UHGV virus genome: UHGV-0430895 | Strand: one strand, 5' to 3' | DNA length: 27,017 nucleotides | DNA from: a virus | In this document: positions 1 to 13,624 of the stretch, in pieces | Layout: every line of letters begins with the position of its first letter | How positions within the stretch are numbered: the first letter of the stretch is position 1 | Notes under the pieces: model-generated | Databases searched by the model: none | The model's input: the letters and a program-made list of their open reading frames with translations, nothing else | What the model was told of the DNA's origin: nothing | Program-made: the position numbers and the translations under genes

Positions 1-366
1 TCACAGTCCGATGATATCGTCTGCCCTGCCATGACCTCCGGACACTTCCGGCAACGTCGGGTCCGGCATACCACTCGCCGTTTCACTGACTGACTTCTGG
101 CGATGGCATTCGGTACAGAGCGTCCAGAGATTCATTTCCTCATTACCGCCACCAAACTGAAGTGCAATGCGGTGATCGAGTTCACTGTCACAAAGGTCAA
201 CCACGCGTCCACAAAGACAACAGTGTCCGGCATCCCTCAGCCAGATACGACGTTTGAGGGAAACCCGGGCACTGCCACTGACACGACGCTGTTCACCCTT
301 CAGGACATTTATCCGCCGGGTGTTCAGCGTTTTGATTCTGCCCGGTAACGTACGAAGCACAGCCAT
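1..366 (-). CDS. HNH homing-type endonuclease (phage, typically adjacent to terminase)
   Basis: Complete 121-aa ORF with His/Cys-rich HNH signature (HCCLCGR...DHRIAL...LWTLCTECHRQK). Position at the edge of the late region is typical of terminase-associated HNH proteins. Confidence 0.75.
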   Translation of the reverse strand: MAVLRTLPGRIKTLNTRRINVLKGEQRRVSGSARVSLKRRIWLRDAGHCCLCGRVVDLCDSELDHRIALQFGGGNEEMNLWTLCTECHRQKSVSETASGMPDPTLPEVSGGHGRADDIIGL

Positions 367-407
367 GTAAAATCCTCGCTATATAGCTTGTCACCCGAGG
401 AAAGAAA

Positions 408-608
408 ATGTCATCGAAAAACCGGACCCGCAGAACCACAACCCGCAATATCCGTTTCCCCAATCACATGATTGAACAGATCAATATCGCCCTTGAACAT
501 AAAGGTTCCGGTAACTTTTCAGCGTGGGTTATTGAAGCCTGCAGGAGAAGGCTGGCAACAGATGCAACGCATCTGCGCCCGGTCAGCATGACAAATAACG
601 AGAAATGA
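408..608 (+). CDS. ylcI: DUF3950/YlcI-like small prophage protein
   Basis: 66-aa ORF MSSKNRTRRTTTRNIRFPN...NFSAWVIEACRRRL resembles the E. coli YlcI family as I recall it. RBS GAGGAAAG lies upstream of the ATG. Confidence 0.55.
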   Translation: MSSKNRTRRTTTRNIRFPNHMIEQINIALEHKGSGNFSAWVIEACRRRLATDATHLRPVSMTNNEK

Positions 609-740
609 ACGTTCGGTTACAGGAGCAGATAACCACTGTCCTCCAACAATATTTCATCGTCATATCCGGCGGAACAAGACTTTACCTGCCGGGATGTACA
701 GAATCACAACACAGTGATAATTAGTTTCTGTTAAAAATAA

Positions 741-1067
741 TCAGGGCGCAGAAGGACTAAAGATAAATGTTTTATTCACGCCTTTACGCGGCTTGCCCTC
801 CTCAAATCGCCATTTTGCCATCGCCTTTACAACCTGGTCATCAAACAGATGGTGCGGTTCTGAACGGATAAACTCAATTCGGGTGACAGTACCATCAGCA
901 CCAATATCAAACTTCACATCAACCCGTCCCTTTATATAATTTGCCGCTGCATAGGCCGGATATTGTGGTAATGCCTTAACCAACTGTCGGGGCATATCTG
1001 TTTTATGTTGCGTACAGCCCATAACCAGAGAAGACAACAAAATAATTAACGGAAGATTTCTTTTCAT
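741..1067 (-). CDS. Lipoprotein with TonB C-terminal-like domain (prophage moron)
   Basis: Signal peptide with lipobox LVMGC. The mature part (LPQYPAYAAANYIKGRVDVKFDIGADGTVTRIEF...AMAKWRFEEGKP) aligns with the TonB C-terminal domain motif (PxYPxxAxxxxIEGxVxVxFDVxxDGRV...AxxxWRYEPG). ATG at 1067 chosen; the ORF-track start at 1076 is a GTG. Confidence 0.65.
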   Translation of the reverse strand: MKRNLPLIILLSSLVMGCTQHKTDMPRQLVKALPQYPAYAAANYIKGRVDVKFDIGADGTVTRIEFIRSEPHHLFDDQVVKAMAKWRFEEGKPRKGVNKTFIFSPSAP

Positions 1068-1081
1068 TCCCGGCACAGATA

Positions 1082-1098
1082 AGAATAAGTCTTATTCT
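1082..1098. promoter_or_regulatory. Perfect palindrome AGAATAAG-N-CTTATTCT immediately upstream of the TonB-like lipoprotein gene (candidate operator)
   Basis: 8+1+8 inverted repeat read directly from the sequence, about 15 nt upstream of the start codon. Confidence 0.4.
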
Positions 1099-1405
1099 AA
1101 CAATGCCACCCTGTCGGTCATCAATCCTCTGCTTAATGGCAACGACAATTGTCCGACTTAAATCACAAATCAGACACATGACATAACAGGGCTTGCGAGG
1201 TAACACATCGTCCGGCTTCTTCCACCATCGCACCGGACCAGCGACCATGAGGGGACAACGCCGCGCTCCGTTAACGCGGTAAACCCCGGTGTGTATCGTT
1301 TTTGATTACCCCCGCACACTCGCGCAGAGGAGTCTCCCTGTCGGGCTGCGGTCTCTGTTAATGCAGGAATACGGCGACAATACCGCGCATGGATAATAAG
1401 GTCAC

Positions 1406-1630
1406 TCAACACACTGGCTGTAATGCAGCGGATACCATGCGGCATTTAGCGGCATTCATCGTACACTCAACGGTTAGCGCTTCATTCGTGGCATTCACCT
1501 GAAAGGTCCGGGTGTGTAATTGCGTACATTTACCACTGAACGAACCTTCAACAAGAACACGACCACGCTGCAAAATACGGAACGGAATTGTTCCCTGAAA
1601 AGGCTTTACGGTTACCAGTAATTTCTTCAT
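1406..1630 (-). CDS. 74-aa hypothetical protein (paralog A), translationally coupled to Rz
   Basis: ATG overlaps the Rz stop (ATGA overlap) and a GGAGG SD precedes it. N-terminal 45 aa resemble the ORF at 8150..8374 (MKKLxVTxxPF...FRxxQ...VLVE..F.GK.T...AT.E...V). Confidence 0.6.
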
Positions 1631-2121
1631 GTATCCTCCGGATAATAAAAAGCCAGCTTAGTGCACTGAGTGCGGATATATTCCTGCGCCCCTTCCAGCT
1701 GCTTCTGCATTGTCATCAACCGTTCTCTGAGGATGAAATAATCCCGTTCAGCGGTGTCTGCCAGTCGGGGGCCGGTTGCATTATCCACGCCGGAGGTGCC
1801 GGTGGCTTCACGCACGGTACCGGGGCAGGTGGCGTTGATCCGCAGGCGCTTACGACCAGCGGCAACATCAGCACGCAGAGTTTCATTTTCAGCTCTCGCA
1901 TCGGCTAATTCCCTCGAGTATTTTGCATCGAGCGCAGCAACATCGCGCTGGCGCTGCTGCATATCAGTAATGGTTGCGTTTGCCAGTTTCAGCTCACTGA
2001 CTTTTTTATCGCGCTGCGCTTTGTAGGTAATGGCGTTATCGCGGTAATGATTCAGCCCCAGACTAAGCGCACCACAGGCCACCAGCAGGGCAATGATGAC
2101 CACACACAGAACGCGGTTCAT
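1627..2121 (-). CDS. Rz: Rz i-spanin (inner-membrane spanin subunit)
   Basis: 164 aa with N-terminal TM segment and coiled-coil periplasmic domain. Contains an embedded +1-frame proline-rich lipoprotein ORF (Rz1), the classic Rz/Rz1 architecture. Sits downstream of endolysin. Confidence 0.85.
1716..1886 (-). CDS. Rz1: Rz1 o-spanin (outer-membrane lipoprotein, embedded in Rz)
   Basis: [17 protein letters not shown] lipobox followed by a proline-rich sequence ([16 protein letters not shown]), entirely inside Rz in another frame. Confidence 0.8.
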
Positions 2122-2128
2122 ATCCCCC

Positions 2129-2260
2129 TCACCCCACCAGCCCTGCCGAAGTCAACGCCATCCAGGCTACGGAAAGAAAAAGAGCAACCAGCATTAGTGA
2201 AAATGAAATGCCGACAATCACACAAATGGTCTTTGTCAGCGTTATGAGTTTGTCTGACAT
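2129..2260 (-). CDS. Candidate 43-aa small membrane protein upstream of Rz (below ORF-track cutoff)
   Basis: ATG at 2258-2260 (complement) preceded by AAGGGG. Translation [43 protein letters not shown]. Its stop lies 7 nt before the Rz ATG and overlaps the Rz SD. Confidence 0.4.
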
Positions 2261-2354
2261 CTTTACCCCTTAATAGCAGTAATTAACCGGGCAACCACCC
2301 ATAAAAACGGAATCAGCCAGACCAGCAAAAATTTCCAGTCCATTTTTATCATCT

Positions 2355-3050
2355 TCATGCTGCGGTAGCTCTCCATGCAGCAAGCAGACCAGCAATCCAC
2401 TGAACACCTTTTGGGGTGAATTTAACCTGCGTAAAAGCATGACCATTGCCCGCCTCGCCCGTTTTCACGCTAAACCGCCCCGCATCCAGGTGATGCGAGT
2501 AAGGCGTCATTTTTCCAGCGAGGCGATACATTATTCCGTTCTCCAACAAAAACAGCCGGAAATCGGTTTCTTTGATACCGAATAACTTAGCAACTTCCCG
2601 GAATCCCATCAGACCAGATGCTTCAACATAGTTATCAACAAATTCAGCCTTCGGCGCTGCTATTGCCAGTTGATTTTCCAGCTCTGCTTTCTGTTCTGCC
2701 AGTTTTGCCGCAAATCGCAACGCCTCAGGTAAAGTCCGGGGGATCTGAATACCATGCATCGCTTTGAGTCTTGCCAGCACAGAACGACGAACGGCCTTTG
2801 ACTCCCTCATGCCAACGAGCATCATCTGGTCAAAATCCAGATCATAGTATGCCGTTCTTGTCTGGTTATTGTTTAACCGGAATTTTTTCCAGGTTACCTC
2901 AAGCTCAAGTTCGTCCTCAATTTTTGCAAGGAACTTACGCGGTTCATGAGGTGGTTTCCCTGCCTCAACCCGGATGGGGTTAATAATGTTATTCAGAAAA
3001 TCCAGACTACTCATGGATATTTCATGATCGACAGAAATCATCTCTTTCAT
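2355..3050 (-). CDS. Phage antirepressor-like protein with KilA-C (ANT) domain
   Basis: The central/C-terminal region (LPEALRFAAKLAEQKAELENQLAIAAPKAEFVDNYVEASGLMGFREVAKLFGI) matches the KilA-C antirepressor domain pattern. A gene at this position between R and Rz is known in Stx-type phages. Confidence 0.6.
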   Translation of the reverse strand: MKEMISVDHEISMSSLDFLNNIINPIRVEAGKPPHEPRKFLAKIEDELELEVTWKKFRLNNNQTRTAYYDLDFDQMMLVGMRESKAVRRSVLARLKAMHGIQIPRTLPEALRFAAKLAEQKAELENQLAIAAPKAEFVDNYVEASGLMGFREVAKLFGIKETDFRLFLLENGIMYRLAGKMTPYSHHLDAGRFSVKTGEAGNGHAFTQVKFTPKGVQWIAGLLAAWRATAA

Positions 3051-3322
3051 GGTTGATTCCTTTTAGTGATGAACCCTGCGCACAGGAATAACCAGCCCAA
3101 AGAGGGTTAACCAAACCACTGCCGGTTATCCACCAGGGCTCATCCTGAAAGGTTCTTTGGTTTATTTACGCTTGTGCGAAGCGCAGAAATGACAAAGGCA
3201 CCATTACGGTGCCTCTGCGTGAAATAATGATCATGACTTTATCCACTTACATTTTGCCAGTTCGCAGGATTTCGTGTTATCCGTCCGCGTGAGTAAACGT
3301 CATTTTTCAGCAAAATATTCTG

Positions 3323-3856
3323 CTATCTGTCGATGTCCCAGCACGCCAGCGCACTTTCCTGGTCACGACGGGATACCTGACCGTAGCAGTTATTTGAGCG
3401 GATACGGCAGTCTCTGCCACCGTCCTTAATCCACCAGCGAATCGCTTCGCAGGCACCTTTTCGATCACCTGCATTAATTCGTTTATAAAACGTCGACGGA
3501 AAACACTTACCGGGGCCAATGTTGTACGGACAGAATGACGCGATCCCCGCTTTCTGGGGTTCGGTCAGTGGCACTTTGATGTTTTTCTCCACCCATGCCA
3601 GCGCCTTATCACGTTCAATGCCATTAACCTGGTCGCATTTTTCCTCCGACAACTTCATGCCCGGAACGACAGGTTTACCATCCACCAGGATGGCACCGCG
3701 GCAGATAGTCCAGATACCCGCACCATCACGGTATGCCGTGGTGTGGTTACCTTCCTTTTCATCCAGAAACTGGTCAAGAATGTCAGGCGCAGAAGCACCT
3801 GCGGCAATCAGCGCCAGAACCGCAGCCGATAAACCATAACGGACTTTCTGACTCAC
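3323..3856 (-). CDS. R: SAR endolysin (T4-lysozyme-like muramidase, phage 21 R-type)
   Basis: N-terminal G/A/S-rich signal-anchor-release segment (GLSAAVLALIAAGASA), then an E...D...T catalytic motif (EKEGNHTTAYRDGAGIWT) as in P21 lysozyme. Immediately downstream of the pinholin. Confidence 0.85.
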   Translation of the reverse strand: MSQKVRYGLSAAVLALIAAGASAPDILDQFLDEKEGNHTTAYRDGAGIWTICRGAILVDGKPVVPGMKLSEEKCDQVNGIERDKALAWVEKNIKVPLTEPQKAGIASFCPYNIGPGKCFPSTFYKRINAGDRKGACEAIRWWIKDGGRDCRIRSNNCYGQVSRRDQESALACWDIDR

Positions 3857-3860
3857 CGTC

Positions 3861-4076
3861 TCACTCTCCCCGGGCTGCCTTACGACGATCCTCTCTGATT
3901 TTGAAATACAGATTAGTGAGGTATGTCAGCAAACCAAAAAACAGACTCCCCAGCACTCCAATAGCCGTCCACTGTGAGGGCGTGACATTATCCAGTATCT
4001 GAAACAACCAGTATCCCGTCCCCGCCGCCGATGTGCTGTACGACACACCCGTTGCTATTTTTTCCATCTGATACAT
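3861..4076 (-). CDS. S: Pinholin, S21-type, with dual start (antiholin 71 aa / holin 68 aa)
   Basis: [26 protein letters not shown]...[12 protein letters not shown]...[22 protein letters not shown] is near-identical in pattern to phage 21 S21-68/71. Met1 and Met4 give the dual-start motif. Confidence 0.85.
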
Positions 4077-4156
4077 GCCCTCGCCTCCCGACTGACGGAA
4101 GTCCGCAGAAACAACAGGGTCACCCGCCTCCTGACCGGTGACCTGCATATCACCCC

Positions 4157-4381
4157 TTACTGAGGCATGAAAGGGTCAGCTGCCGGTTGTTCCGGCTCAG
4201 GCAAGCCCCCTGACGCTTCAGCTGGCGCACCTGTCAGCTCTGCCAGAATCGCATCCACCTCCGCATCTATCTGCGCCTCAAAGGTTGCACGAATTTTTTG
4301 TTTCAGGACGCTGCTCACTTCTTCAGAGCGCAGCGCATCCTTCACTGCTTCTGCAGTGACCAGTTTATTAATATCACTCAT
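4157..4381 (-). CDS. 74-aa hypothetical acidic protein upstream of holin
   Basis: ORF from internal Met [22 protein letters not shown]...; the long ORF-track version has an implausible Cys-rich N-terminus. No family recognised. Confidence 0.4.
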
Positions 4382-4406
4382 GAGATTTTCTCGTTTACGG
4401 GAAAGG

Positions 4407-4571
4407 TTACTGAAGGGAACTGTCCTGCTGCCCGGCACTGATTTTTTCAGCGGCCCTTTTGTCAATCTGGCTACGCCAGAAATTACGGACAGCTTTAAAA
4501 CCACCGGAAAGCAGCACCAGCACACACACCACCGTACAGAAGTACAGCAGGAATTGTTGAATAAAAGTCAT
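4407..4571 (-). CDS. Candidate 54-aa small membrane protein (below ORF-track cutoff)
   Basis: ATG at 4569-4571 (complement) with GGTGGA SD. Translation MTFIQQFLLYFCTVVCVLVLLSGGFKAVRNFWRSQIDKRAAEKISAGQQDSSLQ has an N-terminal TM helix and a charged tail. Confidence 0.4.
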   Translation of the reverse strand: MTFIQQFLLYFCTVVCVLVLLSGGFKAVRNFWRSQIDKRAAEKISAGQQDSSLQ

Positions 4572-4655
4572 CGTTCCACCGTATTGTGCATAATGATGAA
4601 AAACGTCAGAATAAACATGACTTCATAGACACTAATGTCATTTGCTTTCTTCTTT

Positions 4656-4687
4656 GCCCCTCCCGGGACACCGGAGGGGCTTTTTTT
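4656..4687 (+). terminator. Intrinsic terminator oriented for the plus strand (GCCCCTCC-loop-GGAGGGGC + T7)
   Basis: Perfect 8-bp GC stem followed by TTTTTTT on the plus strand only. It lies at the 3' end of minus-strand nanS-p, with no plus-strand gene upstream. Confidence 0.5.
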
Positions 4688-4695
4688 GCTTACCG

Positions 4696-6609
4696 TCAGG
4701 CTGCCGGGCTGTTCACTTCCACTGTCAGCGTGTCAATCCACGTTTCATACGTGGCTGTATTCGACGCATCCGTCAGAATAAGCGTGTTTTCCTGTCCTTC
4801 ATATTTAAAACAGGACAGCTGTGTGGTCGGGGCTTTTACCGTATCCACGTATGGCGTCACCGTGTTCTGGCCTCCTCCCGGATATACCAGCTCCAGTGTG
4901 TGCCATTCACTGTTCAGCGTACCGTATCCCGCAACACGCGTCTGCGCTGCACCATTGTGCATCAGACTGAGTTTGCCATCCGTTTCTGTCTGCAGATAGA
5001 ACGCCACCAGGAACGGATGGGTACCGTCCGCCTTATTGGCAAATTCCACACCTTCCGGGATATCGTTTTCCTTCAGCTGCAGATACATCGCCAGGGCTAT
5101 CTGTTTTCCGTTCGCACTCCCTGGTATTTTAAAGCGACAGGTGATTTTGCCGCCGTTTTTCAGCAGTTCCGCCGCATTTGCCACTTCACGGGTCAGCTTC
5201 AGGTTCATTGCTTCATCCTGGCTCAGTTTCAGCGCCCGCCCGGAAGTACTGCTTTCATCCTGTACCACTTCCGCCTTACCTTCGCTCAGCGTCCAGCCCT
5301 GTTCGGCATAAGCACCTTCACTTTCTGCACCGCTGTACAGGGTGGTAACGTTACTCTTCGGTTTTGCCGGTTCCGGATAGTTTTCCGTTATATCTCCACC
5401 GGCAAGGAACGGTCCGTTACGCCCTGCATGGGTCAGGATTGCGGTGGCTATACGGTCCGGCAGGATGCCGCGACGGGCCCAGGAACTGAAATGCATGGCG
5501 CGTGTCGGGTTCGTCCAGTTACCCGCCGTGCGTGATGCTGCACCGTAATAATTTGCTTCGGGCACATCCGGATCTTCTGCCGGGTTATTGGTCGGAACAT
5601 TCGCACCGGTCTCATCCTTCATGAGTTCGACAAAATGCACATTCGGCTCACTGTTTTTACGGTACGCGCCATAAACCAGGCTGTATTGTGTCGGGTACTG
5701 CTGCTTCCACCAGAAGGTGGTATCACCACATACCCACGGTACGCGGGCCGCATCACCACCCAGACACTGACCGGCATATGCCGCCAGATCGGTACGGAAC
5801 TGCTTCACCATGGCCGTAAACAACGCCGGATGCCCCGTGTAACCTGAAGACATACAGTCACCCTCGCCCTGCATCCAGTACACGGCCAGCAGGACGTTTT
5901 TCGCGTTCTTTTCAAGGGCGGCCTTCGTGCGGGCAATTAAATCCATGTACAACGGTTTACCCACACCCCAGCGGGAGGAATCCGCTGTTGCCCCCGTCTC
6001 CGGGTTATAGGTACCCTCATCACGATCGGTAAACGCAGAGCCGCCACGACTGCACGGCACAATCAGGATCCCCGCATTAACCGGAATATAGGGCAGAAGA
6101 CGTTTGGCAATATGCAGGCCGTGCCCGACACAACCATACTGACCACGGGAAAGGTCCGCGTTGGGGTGATTTTTGGCACTCATGTCTTCAACGTCATGGA
6201 GACAGTGATCGGCCTCAATCACATCGTTGTATTTACAGGCAGCACCACCCGGTCGGACCACACTGCGGCGGGCCAGCTGCTTAATGCGTGGATCGGGACG
6301 GTCGTAGCTGTCAGGCAGGGGCATACCTTCGCCGGTTGCCATATTGTTGGACTGACCTGCGGTGACCAGCACATAGTAATATTCAGGCTCACGGGTCGGC
6401 TCGCTCACCACCGCACCGCCTTCCTCCGGTGTCACCACGACAGGCGTGGTGACATCCCCTTCTGCGGCAATCGCCTGCATCAGGGTATAAGGGGTAATGG
6501 CGACCGGGCTGCCAAACGGCTGCCAGCCTTCCTTCAGTTTTTGAGTCAGTCGCTCCGCAAGGTCTGACGGCGACGCCGCCCTGACCACGTCATAGTGTTT
6601 AAATGCCAT
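4696..6609 (-). CDS. nanS-p: NanS-p type 9-O-acetyl-sialic acid esterase (DUF1737 N-terminal domain + SASA/SGNH esterase)
   Basis: 637 aa; N-terminus MAFKHYDVV...LKEGWQPFGSPV (DUF1737) and central GQSNNMATG esterase motif. This is the gene normally found between stxB and S in Stx phages. Confidence 0.8.
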   Translation of the reverse strand: MAFKHYDVVRAASPSDLAERLTQKLKEGWQPFGSPVAITPYTLMQAIAAEGDVTTPVVVTPEEGGAVVSEPTREPEYYYVLVTAGQSNNMATGEGMPLPDSYDRPDPRIKQLARRSVVRPGGAACKYNDVIEADHCLHDVEDMSAKNHPNADLSRGQYGCVGHGLHIAKRLLPYIPVNAGILIVPCSRGGSAFTDRDEGTYNPETGATADSSRWGVGKPLYMDLIARTKAALEKNAKNVLLAVYWMQGEGDCMSSGYTGHPALFTAMVKQFRTDLAAYAGQCLGGDAARVPWVCGDTTFWWKQQYPTQYSLVYGAYRKNSEPNVHFVELMKDETGANVPTNNPAEDPDVPEANYYGAASRTAGNWTNPTRAMHFSSWARRGILPDRIATAILTHAGRNGPFLAGGDITENYPEPAKPKSNVTTLYSGAESEGAYAEQGWTLSEGKAEVVQDESSTSGRALKLSQDEAMNLKLTREVANAAELLKNGGKITCRFKIPGSANGKQIALAMYLQLKENDIPEGVEFANKADGTHPFLVAFYLQTETDGKLSLMHNGAAQTRVAGYGTLNSEWHTLELVYPGGGQNTVTPYVDTVKAPTTQLSCFKYEGQENTLILTDASNTATYETWIDTLTVEVNSPAA

Positions 6610-6805
6610 GAATCCTCCAGGTCGGGATAATGTTGTGAGTCAGATGAGGGGCGGGCTGAAGTCCGGAAGTTACAGGACAATGGCAGGAGGAAGACTACAG
6701 CCCGCAATACGAAAAAGGCCGCGCAGTTGCGCAGAGTGATTACTGTCGGGTATTATTCGCCAGCTGAAAAATTGATTACTTCACGTTTTGTTGTTTATTC
6801 CTTGC

Positions 6806-6834
6806 TGCCCGCATCTCACCATGCGGGCTTTTTT
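6806..6834 (+). terminator. Intrinsic terminator oriented for the plus strand (GCCCGCAT-loop-ATGCGGGC + T7)
   Basis: Stem-loop followed by TTTTTTT, read directly. It sits in a 500-bp ORF-free gap at the stx-equivalent position. A second palindrome AGCCCCTCCGGAGAGGGGCT lies at 6847..6866. Confidence 0.5.
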
Positions 6835-7108
6835 TATCCATAAGAAAGCCCCTCCGGAGAGGGGCTGACGCTGCGTATCTGTATCATCATGCGCATGGTG
6901 CCGGGTGCCTCCCGGTGAGTTCAGTATCAGCACCTGAACCCGCACAGAAAGGATAAGGCTAAACGAAAACACCTGTACTGATATGCCCCGCCGCTGAGGG
7001 GGATTCACCATGCGACGCGATTTTTAACAAATTCGCAGTCAGTCAGACAATAATCAACTTGCTGAATTGTGAGGTATTTAAAAATTTCACCAGCTAACTG
7101 ATACCAGG

Positions 7109-7273
7109 CTAACCGTCTGGTGTTTTCTTTTTCAGCAACGGGAAAACAACAACCACAACACCAGCCACCAGCATCCCATCTGCCAGCACTGACATTATCC
7201 GGCTGCTGAAGTCCACCATCACGACAAGAAACAGCAGAACTACCACAATGGCCAGGCGCAGTTTTACCGTCAC
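7109..7273 (-). CDS. Candidate 54-aa two-TM membrane protein, translationally coupled to the TerB-like gene (below ORF-track cutoff)
   Basis: GTG start overlaps the TerB-like stop (GTGA overlap), with GGAG 8 nt upstream. Translation (M)TVKLRLAIVVVLLFLVVMVDFSSRIMSVLADGMLVAGVVVVVFPLLKKKTPDG, verified codon by codon. Confidence 0.45.
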   Translation of the reverse strand: MTVKLRLAIVVVLLFLVVMVDFSSRIMSVLADGMLVAGVVVVVFPLLKKKTPDG

Positions 7274-7701
7274 AGGTGATTCTCCAGACGAAGGCCCAGA
7301 ACACCGGCTATCTCTTCCAGCACCTTGCGCTCTTCCGGCTCAATTTCGCCATCTGATTCCGCAATGGCCACCGCCACATCCAGTACATCTTCCGCTTCTC
7401 GCATATCGTGTTTCACGTCCTCGATCTCACGTAACGCTGCACGACGACCTATTTTGAAGTTGGTGTCCAGCTGACCAGTGATGGTTGCGCTAATCGCATT
7501 AATTTCTGACGTAAACGCTGACAATGCAGGTTGGTTACGCAGTACCTGTTCGATCTTCGCTTTCTCGGAAGCCTCACACTCACCATCTGCATAAGCCACC
7601 AGGTATGCAGCGTTAATCACCGCCTGGGCCAGATCGCGTTTTTCAAACTTTTTAATTTCCGCTGCCGCTCTGCGGGTTTTCTTTTTGAAGATTCCAAACA
7701 T
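7270..7701 (-). CDS. TerB-like (tellurite-resistance TerB domain) protein, prophage moron
   Basis: 144 aa from MFGIFKKK. Helical, acidic, with AAYLVAYADGECEASEKAKIEQVL and IAESDGEIEPEERKVLEEIAGVLGL repeats typical of the TerB fold. Confidence 0.6.
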   Translation of the reverse strand: MFGIFKKKTRRAAAEIKKFEKRDLAQAVINAAYLVAYADGECEASEKAKIEQVLRNQPALSAFTSEINAISATITGQLDTNFKIGRRAALREIEDVKHDMREAEDVLDVAVAIAESDGEIEPEERKVLEEIAGVLGLRLENHL

Positions 7702-7833
7702 CGTGACGTTCCTTTGGGTGGGTGAGCCAACGCCCGGGAGCGATCTGCCCACAGAGAAAGTCACACTGACCACTCCGTAAGCTCACCCCCGAAAGGCTCT
7801 GTGGTTGATATGCGCCGGGCGTGGCGCGGATAC

Positions 7834-7856
7834 AAAAAAGGCCGCCAATAGCGACC
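7834..7856 (-). terminator. Intrinsic terminator (minus strand) downstream of the 68-aa ORF
   Basis: Minus-strand GGTCGC-TATTG-GCGGCC followed by TTTTTT. A near-identical copy lies at 8427..8450. Confidence 0.55.
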
Positions 7857-7890
7857 TCAGTTACGGGATTATTCTGGGGTTAAACGACTG

Positions 7891-8097
7891 TTACTCCCAG
7901 ACAAAATCATCACTTCCTGTTCGATGCGAGCCATAGTGAACCTCGTACTTATCTCCCATCTTTCTTGCTTCCGTTTCTGCGTCTTCCTCTGTCGCAAAAA
8001 CCCCAACAAGATGCCAGGGCGAGCTTCTTACCACAGCCCAACCTTTAACCCATCCTTTGTTGTCCTTATCTTCCATTAACACTTCAGAAACAAACAT
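7891..8097 (-). CDS. 68-aa hypothetical protein
   Basis: ORF MFVSEVLMEDKDNKGWVKGWAVV...; no family recognised. Bracketed by the two terminator copies together with the 8150..8374 ORF. Confidence 0.45.
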   Translation of the reverse strand: MFVSEVLMEDKDNKGWVKGWAVVRSSPWHLVGVFATEEDAETEARKMGDKYEVHYGSHRTGSDDFVWE

Positions 8098-8149
8098 ATT
8101 TATCTCCTTGTGGGTACCCGGAGATATTTTATGATTGCTCCCGGTCAGA

Positions 8150-8374
8150 TCAATAAAGTGGCTTCAATTTTGCCTTAATGATCAAATCAGGGTGATTGAC
8201 GGAATCGTACACCACCTCAATATTTTCATCCGTGGCGTCGATAAGATATTCTTTTACATAAGGACCTGTTGATTTTCCATGAAATACATCTTCAACAAGT
8301 ACACTCTCCCCCTGAACAACACGAAAACTAACTTCTGTTTCGAACGGACCAATCGTCACCATCAGTTTTTTCAC
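8150..8374 (-). CDS. 74-aa hypothetical protein (paralog B of 1406..1630)
   Basis: GTG start with strong AGGAGG SD. Shares the N-terminal motif set with paralog A. Located right after the tRNA cluster, in the slot where stx sits in Stx phages. Confidence 0.55.
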   Translation of the reverse strand: MKKLMVTIGPFETEVSFRVVQGESVLVEDVFHGKSTGPYVKEYLIDATDENIEVVYDSVNHPDLIIKAKLKPLY

Positions 8375-8426
8375 ATAGCCTCCTGATAAGCACTCGATTT
8401 ATTAGTTAATGGTGTAACGCAGATAC

Positions 8427-8450
8427 AAAAAAGGCCCGCAAAAGCGAGCC
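8427..8450 (-). terminator. Intrinsic terminator (minus strand) downstream of the tRNA cluster
   Basis: Minus-strand GGCTCGC-TTTT-GCGGGCC followed by TTTTTT; homologous to the terminator at 7834..7856. Confidence 0.55.
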
Positions 8451-8463
8451 AGGTAAATAAATA

Positions 8464-8540
8464 TGGCGCGTTGTACTGGATTCGAACCAGTGACCGATTG
8501 CTTAGAAGGCAATTGCTCTGTCCGGCTGAGCTAACAACGC
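8464..8540 (-). tRNA. tRNA-Arg (anticodon TCT)
   Basis: Manual cloverleaf: acceptor GCGTTGT/ACAACGC, D-arm GCTC...GAGC, anticodon stem ATTGC/GCAAT with loop CTTCTAA, T-loop TTCGAAT, 3' CCA encoded. Confidence 0.8.
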
Positions 8541-8553
8541 AGGGTACGGATAA

Positions 8554-8630
8554 TGGACCGCCATCGAGGACTCGAACCCCGCGCAACCAGCTTCGAAGGC
8601 TGGCGCTCTATCCCGATGAGCTAATGGCGG
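8554..8630 (-). tRNA. tRNA-Arg (anticodon TCG)
   Basis: Manual cloverleaf: anticodon stem CCAGC/GCTGG with loop CTTCGAA, T-arm CGGGG-TTCGAGT-CCTCG, 3' CCA encoded. Exact ends are uncertain by a few nt. Confidence 0.7.
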
Positions 8631-8637
8631 TATGTGA

Positions 8638-8713
8638 TGGTGGCCCTTGCTGGATTTGAACCAGCGACCTGGCGATTATGAGTCGCTCGCTCTCACCACT
8701 GAGCTAAAGGGCC
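8638..8713 (-). tRNA. tRNA with CAT anticodon (Ile2/Met type, ileZ-like of Stx phages)
   Basis: Manual cloverleaf: acceptor GGCCCTT, D-arm GCTCAGTGGTGAGAGC, anticodon loop CTCATAA, T-loop TTCAAAT, 3' CCA encoded. Same position as ileZ-argN-argO in Stx phages. Confidence 0.75.
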
Positions 8714-8753
8714 GGGCGCAGAATAATAACGGTGCGTCACTGATTCTGCAATA

Positions 8754-9812
8754 TCATCCGTTCTGACTGATAAAATCCTGAACTTCCCTGACTGTCTGCT
8801 CAAAACGTCCGGTCTCCAGCTCAACACCAATCGCCCGACGTCCCAGTGACAGCGCCGCTTTTACCGTTGAACCTGACCCCATGAAAAAATCTGCAATCAG
8901 GTCACCCGGACGACTGCTCGCACTGATTATCTGCCGCAGCATTTCTGCCGGTTTTTCGCACGGATGTTTCCCGGGATAGTACTGCACCGGTTTATGCGTC
9001 CACACATCCGTGTACGGCACCTGCGCCGTCACGCCAAAATACCGCCGCAGATGCTTATATTCACTCTGCAGTTCCGCATACTGCCGGTTCAGTGAAGTAT
9101 ACGTCTCCAGCAGCTGGTGGTGGGGCTTTTCCAGTTCACCCCGCTGATGCTTCTCTTCTGCCACCCGGGCAAACAGCGCCTGTAATTTCAGATAATCACT
9201 TTCGTCCGGTAGCTGCCACTGACTGGCACTGAACCAGTGCGACACCATGTTTTTCTTTCCTGTGGCATCCACTATCTGTTTTGCCGTTATCCCCAGGGCA
9301 GCGCGCGCATCACGAAAGTAAGCAATCAGCGGGGCCATCACATGCTGTTTCAGTGCCCTGCCCTTCGCCTCATACCCGGCATCTTTCGGACGATACGGCC
9401 CCTGATAATGTTCCGCGAACAGAATGCGCTCTGTGGCGGGGAAATACGCCCTCAGGCTTTCCTTGTTGCACCCGTTCCAGCGTCCGGACGGCTTCGCCCA
9501 GATGATATGGTTCAGTACGTTAAACCGCTCACGCATCATGATTTCGGTGTCAGATGCCAGGCGATGCCCACAGAACAGGTAAAGGCTTCCGGCAGGTTTT
9601 AACACCCGCCAGAACTGCGCCAGACACTGGTCCAGCCACTTCAGGTAATCATCGTCGCCCTTCCACTGGTTATCCCAGCCCTCAGGCTTCACTTTAAAGT
9701 ACGGCGGGTCCGTGACTATCAGGTCAACAGAATTTTCGGGTAACGACCGGATAAATTCCAGGCAGTCGGCGTTGATTAACTCACAACTGGATATTTTTAC
9801 AGTATTAAGCAT
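8754..9812 (-). CDS. Orphan DNA N6-adenine/N4-cytosine methyltransferase (beta-class, DPPY)
   Basis: 352 aa; N-terminal catalytic motif IV (LIVTDPPYF) and C-terminal SAM-binding motif I (DFFMGSGST). No adjacent restriction endonuclease. Confidence 0.8.
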   Translation of the reverse strand: MLNTVKISSCELINADCLEFIRSLPENSVDLIVTDPPYFKVKPEGWDNQWKGDDDYLKWLDQCLAQFWRVLKPAGSLYLFCGHRLASDTEIMMRERFNVLNHIIWAKPSGRWNGCNKESLRAYFPATERILFAEHYQGPYRPKDAGYEAKGRALKQHVMAPLIAYFRDARAALGITAKQIVDATGKKNMVSHWFSASQWQLPDESDYLKLQALFARVAEEKHQRGELEKPHHQLLETYTSLNRQYAELQSEYKHLRRYFGVTAQVPYTDVWTHKPVQYYPGKHPCEKPAEMLRQIISASSRPGDLIADFFMGSGSTVKAALSLGRRAIGVELETGRFEQTVREVQDFISQNG

Positions 9813-9949
9813 GGATCATTAAGCCTGTCTCTGATAGGCTCATTCTGCTTTTGCGCAAAGCAGTGGGCCTGAGGTTTGCTTGTGATCCGGACGCATGAGC
9901 AGATGGCTGGTGAGTGCCCCTAACACCCACCAGCCGCCCATTTACCACA

Positions 9950-9977
9950 AATAAAAAAGCCTTCAGGACTGAAGGCG
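9950..9977 (-). terminator. Intrinsic terminator (minus strand) overlapping the 3' end of the 65-aa ORF
   Basis: Minus-strand GCCTTCAG-TCC-TGAAGGC followed by TTTTTTATTT. Confidence 0.55.
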
Positions 9978-10160
9978 TCTGTAACAACCAAACTGATAGT
10001 CTGCCAGACCCGCCATAACCAGCTGGGTCAGTATTAACTGGCAGCGTTCGCGTGAAAGGTAAGTATTCTGCGCAATCTCCCCGACTGTCGCCGGGTCGGT
10101 AACGCTTAATTCATTAAACACCACTCTGGCGGTTTCTGTCATATCCTGCTGTTTTAGCAT
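9963..10160 (-). CDS. 65-aa hypothetical protein, first ORF after the late terminator
   Basis: ORF only; weak RBS; no family recognised. Confidence 0.35.
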   Translation of the reverse strand: MLKQQDMTETARVVFNELSVTDPATVGEIAQNTYLSRERCQLILTQLVMAGLADYQFGCYRRLQS

Positions 10161-10282
10161 GCCTTTTTTCCCTTTTCCGGTTAACGTGACATACCAATAA
10201 CTCTTGTCGAAAAAGCCAGCAAGCTGAAAGAACGGTATTAATAACCACCAGCGAATTTATTGCGCTGCTGTATATTACGGAC

Positions 10283-10305
10283 ACAAAAAAACCACCTTCC
10301 GGTGG
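10283..10305 (-). terminator. Intrinsic terminator downstream of the Q-like gene (tR'-like)
   Basis: Minus-strand CCACC-GGAA-GGTGG followed by TTTTTTT, about 100 nt downstream of the Q-like stop. This is the position of lambda tR'. Confidence 0.6.
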
Positions 10306-10403
10306 CTTCCTTGTGCGAAAAAAACTTGCGTTTCGCCTCGCGATACAGCTTTGCGAAGCTTACAGGAATTCAAGCTGTTTCTGCGTAAAAAAGCAAGCTT
10401 TTT

Positions 10404-10946
10404 TTATCGAAATGAATCATGCATAGGTACATAAAGCATGTGTTCAGCCACGGCTAACCAACCTGCAATACGTTTCTCACATGTGCTGAAGCACCATTCC
10501 GGGTGAGTACGATTTAAACATTCTGCCATTTTTCTCTTACTCATTCCCCGTCCTTCGTACCTTTGCCGGAGAATATTGATTAGCCCGGGATATTCCCCAA
10601 GCACCTCACTGATGACGCGATCAATAATCAACGCCTCTGTGTCTGTACAATGTGACAACCAGCTCTTCTGCTTCCCTCTGGTCATATCCCGAAAAAATGC
10701 CTCAAGTTCCGGTTTATCCAGCCCGGATTTCTTCATTCTGCGTAAAACCTCATTAACTGCTGTTTTTGTCAGCTTCTTCGAAACCAGTAACCGGTTAAAC
10801 ATATTTCCGGATTTACCCCCACCTATATACGACCACCGCCCCCACATCCGTAATTTCCCCTGGATCCAGACTGCTTCCAGCGTGTTCAGGCGTAAATGTT
10901 CGCCGCTTTTGCCTGTAATTTCCGGATATATCATATTTACGCTCAC
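10404..10946 (-). CDS. Putative late-gene antiterminator (Q-like)
   Basis: 180-aa ORF immediately upstream of the terminator/late region and downstream of rusA, the canonical Q position. The family assignment is by position and recollection of prophage antitermination proteins, not by a recognised motif. Confidence 0.5.
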   Translation of the reverse strand: MSVNMIYPEITGKSGEHLRLNTLEAVWIQGKLRMWGRWSYIGGGKSGNMFNRLLVSKKLTKTAVNEVLRRMKKSGLDKPELEAFFRDMTRGKQKSWLSHCTDTEALIIDRVISEVLGEYPGLINILRQRYEGRGMSKRKMAECLNRTHPEWCFSTCEKRIAGWLAVAEHMLYVPMHDSFR

Positions 10947-11302
10947 TCACTCTCAATTTTGTAAATCTTCACACCCAGCCGTCCACCAGATACTGGCTGA
11001 CCACGTACAATATTGATTTCATCAAACTGCTCGTCATCAATGAGCACTCCCGCATGCGTCAGCGCATCCAGCGGTGCTTTCAGAATATTGTCCAGGTCGC
11101 GACGGCGCTTATCCGGTGGCTCTGCAATCACCTTTATCGCCAGCCTTCCGGACAGGCTTAATTTCAGCCGCTGCTGGCGAACAATAAGCGCCACTGCCCG
11201 GCGATAACGCTCCCCGGCTTTTGATACAAAATATGTGCTGCCACGGCGTCGCCAGTAAGTGTTCACTGTCGGCGGATAAGGTAAAACCAAATCTATGAGC
11301 AT
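10943..11302 (-). CDS. rusA: RusA Holliday-junction resolvase
   Basis: 119 aa; PYPPTVNTYW...RRRDLDNILKAPLDALTHAGVLIDDEQ matches the RusA family signature, including the catalytic DxD region. Confidence 0.85.
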   Translation of the reverse strand: MLIDLVLPYPPTVNTYWRRRGSTYFVSKAGERYRRAVALIVRQQRLKLSLSGRLAIKVIAEPPDKRRRDLDNILKAPLDALTHAGVLIDDEQFDEINIVRGQPVSGGRLGVKIYKIESE

Positions 11303-11314
11303 CAGTCACCTCTT

Positions 11315-12418
11315 TTACCCGAGCACGCCAGTTGCAAAGGCGTGATCAAGAAAACGAAAAATTAACTCAACCTGGGAGCCGTACTTTTTCTCAAACTCCA
11401 GCGGGTCAGCATGAAGTTCGTTGTGATGTTCCCGGCACAACGGTAGCGTGAAAATATCGTGGGCCTTTGTTCCCATTCCCCCCTGACCATGACCAATCAG
11501 GTGATGCGGATCGTCAGCTGGCTTACCACAACACGCACACGGCTGTGTCTTTACCCAGCGCGTGTATTTCTCATTAACCCAACGGCGACGTTTAGGCCGC
11601 CTCATGAACGATTCAGGAGACTCCGGATCAACGGCGATACTGACAACCGTTTTTTTCTGTGGTGGATTTTGTTGCTGGTGGACGTGAAGTGGCAGCGCAA
11701 TATTTTTTGTGCGCTGCTTCAGTATGCTGATGGCTGTCTGTTCTCCCGGTACGATGTCACTCTCACGGTATACGGAGCGGATTTTTTCCGCTGGTAATCC
11801 CAGCGAACGACGCGCTACTGCCTCAGGTAGTGCATCCACCACCTGATTGCAGGCCGCCCACCAGGATAATTCGGCCAGCGATAACTCCCTCTCCTGCGTA
11901 CCGCTTATTGCGTGACGGATGACGTCAATCATCCAGGCAACCAGATTCTGTTGAGCAAGTAGCTCCAGTGAATCAGATGTCTGCTCCCGCAGGTGGTTGT
12001 CGCAGTGCCAGCACAACACCATCGCGCCGGTACCGTAACGGTGAATGACGGTTTCGCTGTGATGATAATCGCCGTGTGGCCACTGGCAGGATTTCACGTG
12101 ACGTAATAACCAGTCAGACAGTGCACCAGCGCCACCCGCAGCACGGATCACCCGCTCATCGATGAAAAATGGCAGTAATGATTTATCTTCCGCCAGCGGC
12201 TGGCGAACGGCAGGTACAACCCCGGACGGCAGAGCACGCATGCTTTTCGGTTCCGGCTCCACCAGCACCCTGCCGCAATGAAAAACCGGCAGTGATTCAC
12301 GACCGGGCGTAAGGACCACCAGCCCGAGTTCCGGAACCAGAACAGGTCGAAGTAATACCCGCACATTACCTCCAGACGCGCTGACGGTAGCAGGCATGTG
12401 TCCGTGGCAGATGTGCAC
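11315..12418 (-). CDS. DUF968 (YdfU-like) prophage protein with HNH-like Cys/His C-terminus; true start probably internal
   Basis: C-terminal PCACCGKPADDPHHLIGHGQGGMGTKAHDIFTLPLCREHHNELH motif. The 5' extent overlaps the 12366..12701 ORF, so the start is uncertain. Confidence 0.6.
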   Translation of the reverse strand: MHICHGHMPATVSASGGNVRVLLRPVLVPELGLVVLTPGRESLPVFHCGRVLVEPEPKSMRALPSGVVPAVRQPLAEDKSLLPFFIDERVIRAAGGAGALSDWLLRHVKSCQWPHGDYHHSETVIHRYGTGAMVLCWHCDNHLREQTSDSLELLAQQNLVAWMIDVIRHAISGTQERELSLAELSWWAACNQVVDALPEAVARRSLGLPAEKIRSVYRESDIVPGEQTAISILKQRTKNIALPLHVHQQQNPPQKKTVVSIAVDPESPESFMRRPKRRRWVNEKYTRWVKTQPCACCGKPADDPHHLIGHGQGGMGTKAHDIFTLPLCREHHNELHADPLEFEKKYGSQVELIFRFLDHAFATGVLG

Positions 12419-13223: not shown

Positions 13224-13379
13224 TTACTTCTCAGATTCGTAGTCTACGAAGACAGCGACCTCCGTCTGGCCGGTTCGGATTCGTACCTCGCAGAGGTCTT
13301 TCCTCGTTACCAGTGCCGTCACTATGACGGTTAAACAGATGACAATCAGGGCGATTAACATCGCCTTTTGCTGCTTCAT
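13224..13379 (-). CDS. hokD: Hok/Gef-family type I toxin (HokD/RelF-like)
   Basis: MKQQKAMLIALIVICLTVIVTALVTRKDLCEVRIRTGQTEVAVF... is essentially the HokD sequence as I recall it. The upstream region is strongly structured (9-bp inverted repeat CTGTCTGCC/GGCAGACAG). Confidence 0.8.
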   Translation of the reverse strand: MKQQKAMLIALIVICLTVIVTALVTRKDLCEVRIRTGQTEVAVFVDYESEK

Positions 13380-13624
13380 AGCCTGCTTCTCCTTGCCTTT
13401 CGGCACGTAAGAGGCTAACCTACATGTGCAAAGCATGAAATTGGCCTCAGATTAATGTTAAGCGTCTTGCCGGACGCGTAATGTTAACTGGGGCTTTTCT
13501 CTGTCTGCCTTACGGTGGCATGCCCGAGGCAGACAGCCTCAAGCACCCGCAGCAATTCTACTTAACTCTCGCTTTACCGCAAACCGTTTTTACCCGATAT
13601 GGGAATCCCCATATCGCAATGAAA

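Follow-up and report, generated by a model that had tools for sequence, protein, structure and literature searches.

A prophage-encoded lipoprotein with a TonB C-terminal domain, a candidate decoy for TonB-dependent import

UHGV virus genome UHGV-0430895, a stretch of 27,017 nucleotides referred to here as the window, carries on its minus strand a gene (741..1067) for a 108-residue lipoprotein made of a signal peptide with a lipobox, a 7-residue tether and a TonB C-terminal domain. Our preferred reading, which falls only a little short of being probable, is that this is a lysogenic-conversion ('moron') gene whose product would act as a TonB decoy and exclude TonB-dependent agents. A box-binding domain that has no link to ExbB-ExbD and lies close to the outer membrane would find its most economical explanation in competitive, unproductive occupation of TonB boxes.

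The TonB C-terminal domain and its lipobox signal peptide

Residues 26-104 of the protein (756..992, minus strand), which correspond to residues 153-231 of E. coli TonB, form the domain. Pfam TonB_C (PF03544) is matched by residues 34-101 with E=4.8e-15 and 56.2 bits against a cut-off of 24.6, the NCBIfam model TIGR01352 gives 55.3 bits against 27.1, and a sequence search of the PDB aligns residues 24-103 to the solved C-terminal domains of E. coli and Salmonella TonB (E ~1e-17). An AlphaFold2 (AF2) model built from a 17-sequence alignment, which superseded a 5-sequence run with a predicted local distance difference test score (pLDDT) of 60, reaches a pLDDT of 86 overall and more than 94 across the domain, and adopts the alpha/beta TonB_C fold with a free beta3 edge strand. 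Foldseek superposes this model on TonB bound to BtuB (2gsk_B; template-modelling score (TM) 0.92, root-mean-square deviation (rmsd) 1.1 Å), on TonB bound to FhuA (2grx_C; rmsd 0.9 Å) and on 1u07_A (E=1e-8). The likeness to the TonB C-terminal domain, proposed by an earlier reading made from the sequence only, is thus borne out both by the profile search, clearly above cut-off, and by the predicted structure.

Over 79-83 residues the protein is ~42% identical to E. coli TonB 153-233 (1u07, 2gsk and 2grx), with rmsd values of 0.9-1.7 Å. When the PDB alignment is mapped onto the family alignment (query residue = TonB residue − 127), the family-invariant residues P153, P161, Y163, V176, G186, P198, F202, W213 and P220 are identical to those of E. 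coli TonB; P164, F180 and F230 are likewise unchanged, and Y215 is replaced by Phe. In query numbering, the YP motif and aromatic core comprise Y36, P37, F53, F75, W86, F88 and F103. What the lipoprotein shares with TonB is thus Y163-P164, G186, F180, F202, W213, F230 and the TonB-box-pairing beta3 edge strand; unlike TonB, it ends 5 residues past beta3. Variation within subfamily A, the window type, clusters in the alpha2-beta3 loop at residues 90-100 (768..800), where the variants EEGKPRKGVNK, EKDRPCKGVKK and EKDMPRKGVKKK occur; this loop adjoins the TonB-box-binding strand and may be specificity-determining.

The remainder of TonB is missing. Equivalog models NF008081-NF008084 match only from ~152 to 240 (their last ~85 positions) and reach 64-76 bits where the cut-offs lie at 265-448, so that the membrane anchor and the proline-rich rod are absent: the protein has neither a transmembrane anchor for coupling to ExbB-ExbD nor a proline-rich spacer crossing the periplasm, and its domain is joined to the lipobox Cys by 7 residues, in agreement with what the sequence-only reading had stated. 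The likeness to TonB thus stops at the C-terminal domain, the lipoprotein being prophage-encoded and, as predicted, lipid-anchored to the opposite (outer) membrane.

An open reading frame (ORF) extending over 741..1076 exists if a GTG start is taken, with its stop codon at 741..743. The true start is almost certainly the ATG at 1067, the one that PGAP annotates in the relatives, where the product is a 108-residue 'TonB family protein'; the alternative GTG at 1076, which would add MPG, is unlikely. Up to the lipobox the N-terminus reads MKRNLPLIILLSSLVMGC, an 18-residue signal peptide including the Cys (1014..1067, minus strand) whose n-region is positively charged and whose hydrophobic core is followed by the lipobox V-M-G-C18. 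This lipobox, claimed earlier and read directly in the sequence, conforms to the pattern [LVI][ASTVIM][GAS]C and has been kept by almost every lineage of the clade in the alignment (E. coli, Klebsiella, Rahnella, Sodalis and plasmid); the codon of the predicted lipidated Cys18 lies at 1014..1016. The Cys is followed by the tether TQHKTDM, and the domain begins at P26. In E. coli, Asp at position +2 acts as a Lol-avoidance signal and other lipoproteins go to the outer membrane. Position +2 is Thr here and Ser, Ala or Thr in the relatives, with no Asp, and from this Thr the 108-residue lipoprotein is predicted to be sorted to the outer membrane. The record of phage Lys8385Vzw (MT225100, Lys8385Vzw_66) begins the coding sequence (CDS) at the lipobox-internal Met (MGC…) and names the product 'protein TonB'.

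Proposed decoy action, precedents and objections

As we picture it, the tether would hold the energy-uncoupled domain ~2-3 nm under the outer membrane, beneath the TonB-dependent transporters, where it could pair by beta-strand addition, in the fashion of genuine TonB, with the TonB boxes of transporters such as FhuA, FepA, CirA and BtuB or of incoming group B colicins. With no ExbB-ExbD link these boxes would be occupied unproductively, shutting out agents that depend on TonB (T1/phi80-type phages, group B colicins and siderophore-microcins, for example), from which lysogen and prophage would profit. Transcription would be driven by the gene's own extended -10 promoter, which in several sister lineages appears to be overlapped by a Fur operator; iron limitation would then derepress transporters and decoy together, and Fur co-regulation would keep the decoy proportionate to its targets. 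In the window copy the Fur operator would be degenerate, and would be the palindrome that the first reading picked out. The short tether, the retention of TonB core residues and of the beta3 edge strand, and the fit to the TonB-box-bound conformation are all consistent with a decoy, as are the recurrence on prophages, the adjacency to defence genes and the published inhibition by periplasmic TonB fragments.

Precedents make such a mechanism plausible. As reported through PMC9841981, transport through FecA and FhuA is inhibited when the TonB domain is synthesised in the periplasm (Howard et al. 2001, cited in PMC9841981), and a TonB-box pentapeptide stops killing by TonB-dependent colicins and infection by phi80 (Tuckman & Osburne 1992, cited in PMC9841981). 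The dominant-negative TonB fragments of that source (PMC9841981) appear, in its description, to share with the lipoprotein a periplasmic TonB C-terminal domain freed from energy coupling. Those fragments are laboratory constructs, soluble and overexpressed, whereas the lipoprotein gene is natural, under purifying selection and, as predicted, lipid-anchored and Fur-controlled in relatives.

A second parallel is offered by phage exclusion lipoproteins. Llp of T5 (PMC9586334) and Cor of phi80, N15 and HK022 (PMC11436027) are described in these sources as exclusion lipoproteins that inactivate FhuA from the periplasmic side; by analogy, they indicate that the strategy pays. The protein studied here would likewise be a small phage-encoded outer-membrane lipoprotein, with a proposed action on TonB-dependent transporters from the periplasmic face. 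Llp and Cor are FhuA-specific, whereas a TonB mimic could, in theory, target any TonB box, and colicins as well as phages. Searches of Pfam, PHROGs and PADLOC returned TonB_C-type or unrelated families only, with no homology to Cor or Llp.

Several points weigh against a decoy. First, Q160 is changed to Leu and R166 to Tyr, both at positions implicated in contact with the TonB box or FhuA, and the Tyr at position 166 is retained in most of the lipoprotein clade, so that specificity may differ from that of TonB. Second, the window copy may be poorly translated, as its Shine-Dalgarno-like GGGA (1071..1068, within 1063..1071 on the minus strand) is flush with the ATG and the 6-nt spacing of most relatives, which read GGGA-ATGAAA-ATG, has been lost. 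Third, phage 21 and the Rahnella copy have no Fur-like site above background, so iron control is not universal. Fourth, none of the PADLOC defence models matches the protein, and its function is undescribed in the literature searched. Finally, blocking TonB boxes in general would also deprive the host of iron, just when Fur derepresses the blocker.

The first of these objections leads to a different account, which we regard as quite unlikely: the domain may have been re-targeted, its partner being the C-terminal domain of host TonB (a poisoned heterodimer), a single receptor, namely that used by the carrier phage, or some other periplasmic beta-strand ligand. Clade-specific substitutions in the contact region (R166 to Tyr, with Q160 variable), the variability of the alpha2-beta3 loop (residues 89-99) and the varied ligands of TonB-like folds, as in FusB-ferredoxin (9hi3) and TolA-g3p, would all agree with it; yet neither the beta3 edge strand nor the Y163-P164 motif is disrupted, the model fits the TonB-box-bound state best, and the 7-residue tether would keep the domain at the outer membrane, far from most other partners.

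Palindrome, promoter and Fur-box signal

The perfect 8+1+8 palindrome AGAATAAG-T-CTTATTCT described by the sequence-only reading is indeed present (1082..1098), 10 nt upstream of the GGGA. Dinucleotide shuffles yield 0.47 palindromes of this kind per 27-kb window and one is observed; the palindrome alone is within chance, and its significance must rest on its position and on comparison with relatives. It is perfect in ~69/74 type A (subfamily A) loci from IMG/VR, which is uninformative because these loci are ~95% identical throughout; subfamily B has only the promoter-proximal arm (TGTCAGAATAAGAC…) and the E. coli-type P0006 contig neither arm. The regulated expression that had been proposed from the palindrome receives only indirect support: the dyad is not conserved outside type A, but it overlaps a conserved extended -10 and a 13/19 Fur-box match, and sister lineages have near-canonical Fur boxes at this position.

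Next to it lies an extended -10 (1094..1102, minus strand; TG-T-TAGAAT in gene orientation), found in a promoter scan and conserved across subfamilies as TGn followed by TAGAAT, CAGAAT, TAAAAT or TAGTAT. A weak -35-like hexamer, ATGACC (1116..1121, minus strand), stands 16 nt from the -10 and is a consensus match only, at 9/12 overall. Between promoter and start codon the window has a single AATGAA unit (1068..1063, minus strand), which most relatives carry in tandem duplicate. Copy number ranges from 1 to 3 across the 74 type A loci; three copies occur in two loci, a single copy is shared by the window and one IMG/VR locus (L032), and 14 loci read GGGAATAAAAATG in this region. Such variation could be slipped-strand tuning of translation.

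Compared with known operators, the palindrome shows nothing above background for the LexA, CRP, FNR and ArgR consensus sequences; for Fur, a 19-mer overlapping it, GATAAGAATAAGTCTTATT (1078..1096, plus strand), matches at 13/19, a score that is weak alone. Scoring was by consensus matching to the 19 positions of GATAATGATAATCATTATC, with no weight matrix. The hexamers GATAAG, AATAAG and, after a T, CTTATT are arranged forward-forward-x-reverse, as in a Fur box, and at the level of consensus the predicted site overlaps the extended -10. A score of 13/19 is the maximum in the window and is reached at 10 positions, the palindrome region among them. The window-top score for a Zur-box consensus (15/23) also falls here, at 1084..1106, and is judged to be most likely a by-product of the AT-rich palindrome.

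The comparison among lineages is more telling. For each, the best Fur match up to 120 nt upstream of the gene was recorded, the null being control 130-nt tiles with the true sites masked, among which 4.7% (10% of AT-rich tiles) score at least 13 and 0.27% at least 15. Sodalis reaches 17/19 (GATAATGATTCTCATTAAC), the P0036-type prophage group 15-16/19, with a perfect dyad TTGATAAT-N-ATTATCAA, and the P0177/P0125 contigs 15/19; the Klebsiella-type group stands at 13-14/19, and the window type, like the plasmid copy (P0070, upstream dyad CCTGTAAA-N9-TTTACAGG), at 13/19. Each of these Fur-like sites ends 10-18 nt ahead of the start codon. At least 15 is thus attained by 3/9 lipoprotein lineages, whose upstream DNA is otherwise dissimilar, and at least 13 by 6/9; a binomial estimate gives P ~3.5e-5 for 3/9 lineages at 15 or above, the lineages being not fully independent. 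In the Serratia forms described below, upstream Fur matches are not above background. The P0036-type and window dyads have the same 8+1+8 geometry, and both directly follow a shared TGTTAGTAT element.

For the window itself, there is a serious competing account, only somewhat improbable in our estimate, in which the palindrome is a chance or lineage-specific dyad, or a non-Fur operator, and expression is constitutive from the extended -10 with late read-through. The expected number of such palindromes per window, the loss of the second arm in subfamily B and on the P0006 contig, a Fur score that 4.7-10% of control tiles reach, the identical deviation of all three hexamers (G at position 6) and the comparable Zur score all speak for it; what it would have to set aside is that geometry, register and position equal those of the canonical P0036-type Fur dyad, after a shared TGTTAG[A/T]AT, and that the enrichment across the family is improbable by chance. 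Judging from these sites, the family is likely to be expressed under iron (Fur) control; for the window copy this is uncertain. Fur control would be a recurrent trait of the family, and in our reading the window palindrome is most simply a diverged Fur operator; that it still binds Fur is possible but rather doubtful.

The same Fur signal bears on another alternative, unlikely but with substance, in which the domain binds TonB boxes as in the decoy reading and serves another purpose, the tuning of host TonB-dependent uptake or signalling under iron limitation. It could, for instance, limit the import of iron, haem or B12, or surface signalling of the FecA type, inside the gut or an infected host, as a fitness or virulence-type conversion gene comparable to Fur-regulated stx1 and not as a defence. 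The stx1 promoter is reportedly iron-regulated; the Fur-box enrichment puts the family into the iron regulon, Stx1a-converting phages often carry type A, and the protein matches no known defence model. Blocking iron uptake during iron starvation has no obvious benefit for a lysogen, however, and both the slot, common to exclusion and serum-resistance morons, and the plasmid copy adjacent to a Qat-like cluster fit a protective role better.

Further upstream, ~130-170 nt from the gene, a GGTGCGATGGTGGAAGAAAC… stretch (1190..1235, minus strand; also in L002, L003 and L004) is common to subfamilies A and B and to the P0006 contig despite diverging flanks; in phage 21 it lies inside a 45-residue hypothetical CDS.

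Family, prophage setting and consequences

Subfamilies A and B are 69% identical, and the dN/dS between them is 0.11-0.18 at saturated dS, which indicates a working gene under purifying selection. Subfamily A is carried by Stx1a-converting phages, phage Lys8385Vzw and phage JLK-2012, and subfamily B by phage 21, a classical lambdoid phage whose record names it "TonB C-terminal domain protein", and by ev017, whose annotation was taken over from EDL933. At least 80% of window 600..1300, which includes the gene, is found in 414/5426 complete E. coli genomes. An exhaustive HMMER search added relatives of 100-135 residues with 35-52% identity, mostly with lipoboxes. The motifs P-x-Y-P-x-Y-A, SEPxHLFD and KWxFExxKP distinguish the clade from genuine TonB, and therefore mark it as a distinct lipoprotein clade and not a recent fragment of E. 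coli tonB. A scan of GTDB species representatives hit solely a 418-bp contig of a Modestobacter assembly, which is presumably a contaminant, and IMG/VR scans with P0040, P0177 and P0049 as queries found no match. Many subfamily B variants from metagenomes (P0011, P0013, P0015, P0017, P0019 and P0021) have a frameshift at residues 88-92, just ahead of beta3, and unrelated C-termini; these could be assembly errors or genuine inactivated alleles. The existence of the gene is not new, public records listing a "TonB family protein", and the literature searched contained no functional study of it or hypothesis about its role.

The prophage origin supposed from the sequence agrees with the gene content: the window holds Rz/Rz1, lysozyme, holin, Q, integrase, HNH and DUF3950 genes, and terminase lies downstream in relatives. 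On the same strand, holin, lysozyme, antirepressor, Rz/Rz1 and a 74-residue ORF precede the lipoprotein gene, beyond which come the DUF3950 gene, the HNH gene and then, as seen in relatives, terminase. The position between lysis genes and terminase recurs in Escherichia prophages, including phage 21, where the gene adjoins bor, and in distant homologues from Rahnella (36% identity), Sodalis (51%) and Klebsiella prophages. It is also the slot of lambda Bor and other morons between the lysis genes and cos/terminase, and the protein belongs to the same class of small prophage-expressed lipoproteins; unlike Bor, which has been linked to serum resistance, it runs in the late-operon direction and is unrelated in sequence and fold. 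Of the promoter and terminator that would flank an autonomous moron, a promoter-like extended -10 is present and conserved, and a scan found no convincing terminator downstream (fold z-score -0.54). A two-gene module with the 74-residue ORF (1406..1630) was considered and rejected, since the Rahnella 74-residue counterpart is dissimilar.

This neighbourhood also raises the possibility, in our view very improbable, of an envelope-structural, peptidoglycan-binding or lysis-accessory lipoprotein. The protein gives a full-length match to PHROG 1267 ('Rz-like spanin', lysis), and its gene is directly downstream of Rz (i-spanin; 1627..2121, minus strand) and the embedded Rz1 (1716..1901, minus strand), an arrangement that the annotations of relatives share; as it follows them on the same strand with no terminator found around it, late transcripts probably read through. 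A contact with peptidoglycan has been proposed for the TonB C-terminal domain. The window already has a complete Rz/Rz1 pair, however, and the lipoprotein is a globular TonB_C domain that has neither the N-terminal transmembrane segment and periplasmic coiled coil seen in i-spanins nor the proline-rich stretch of o-spanins, which are short lipoproteins usually encoded within, or overlapping, the gene of the i-spanin, so that the PHROG label is best seen as a positional annotation transfer. Moreover, a 7-residue tether is too short for the peptidoglycan layer, an own promoter and, in relatives, a Fur box are unexpected for a lysis gene, and copies occur on a plasmid and outside lysis cassettes.

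The plasmid copy (P0070; L016 5348..12124) is on a plasmid contig of ParM/StbA type, where it immediately precedes DUF6694 and a Qat-like defence cluster (KAP NTPase, QatB and TatD). A Serratia subfamily (L012-L014, about 8001..10510) consists of non-lipoprotein, periplasmic TonB_C proteins of 119 residues that have no lipobox; the gene is head-to-tail with a colicin-E1-type immunity gene and convergent with that of a 575-residue pore-forming colicin, which carries DSMTV (residues 18-22, TonB-box-like) in its N-terminus together with a ColA-type N-terminal domain. It borders a chromosomal hotspot that has a SIR2 gene in another strain (L018). Given this variable content and the ColA-type domain of the colicin, the neighbourhood, though suggestive, was rejected as specific evidence for an 'extra immunity' function.

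Other prophage features are located at window positions 6836..7043, 7270..7773, 8464..8713 and 13374..13548. The prophage contains a match to the STnc100 small RNA (133 bits), a TerB-domain protein in the slot where Stx phages carry stx, three tRNA genes (Arg-TCT, Arg-TCG and Met-CAT) and a hok/sok locus (sok, 117 bits). Window 1..12000 is present at high coverage in 0/5426 complete E. coli genomes, the best reaching 65-77% at ~90-92% identity; this low coverage points to a mosaic lambdoid prophage from outside that genome collection, possibly from a neighbouring species.

Returning to the decoy, the wider idea that the prophage and plasmid TonB mimics form a broad 'import firewall', often Fur-switched under iron starvation, is one we entertain with some doubt. 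If true, it would amount to exclusion or defence by mimicry of the host energy transducer, a mode undescribed in the literature searched, that would shut out all TonB-dependent phages, group B colicins and siderophore-microcins at once, and that in many lineages would come into play at the very time when a shortage of iron makes the cell display an abundance of the receptors through which they enter. The Fur-box signal seen across the family is a further finding, and offers a simple, testable regulatory prediction.

For phages (T1, phi80 and many newly isolated coliphages), colicins, microcins and siderophore-antibiotic conjugates alike, TonB-dependent transporters are a major way into the cell. 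If the decoy reading is true, such a protein would be present in ~8% of complete E. coli genomes, including Stx1a phages of enterohaemorrhagic strains, as well as in Klebsiella prophages, with consequences for the host range of phage therapy and for the way colicins and microcins shape competition in the inflamed, iron-poor gut, and perhaps for how susceptible bacteria are to siderophore drugs of the 'Trojan horse' kind. A ready natural probe of the TonB-box interaction, an antibiotic target under pursuit (PMC9841981), would be at hand as well.

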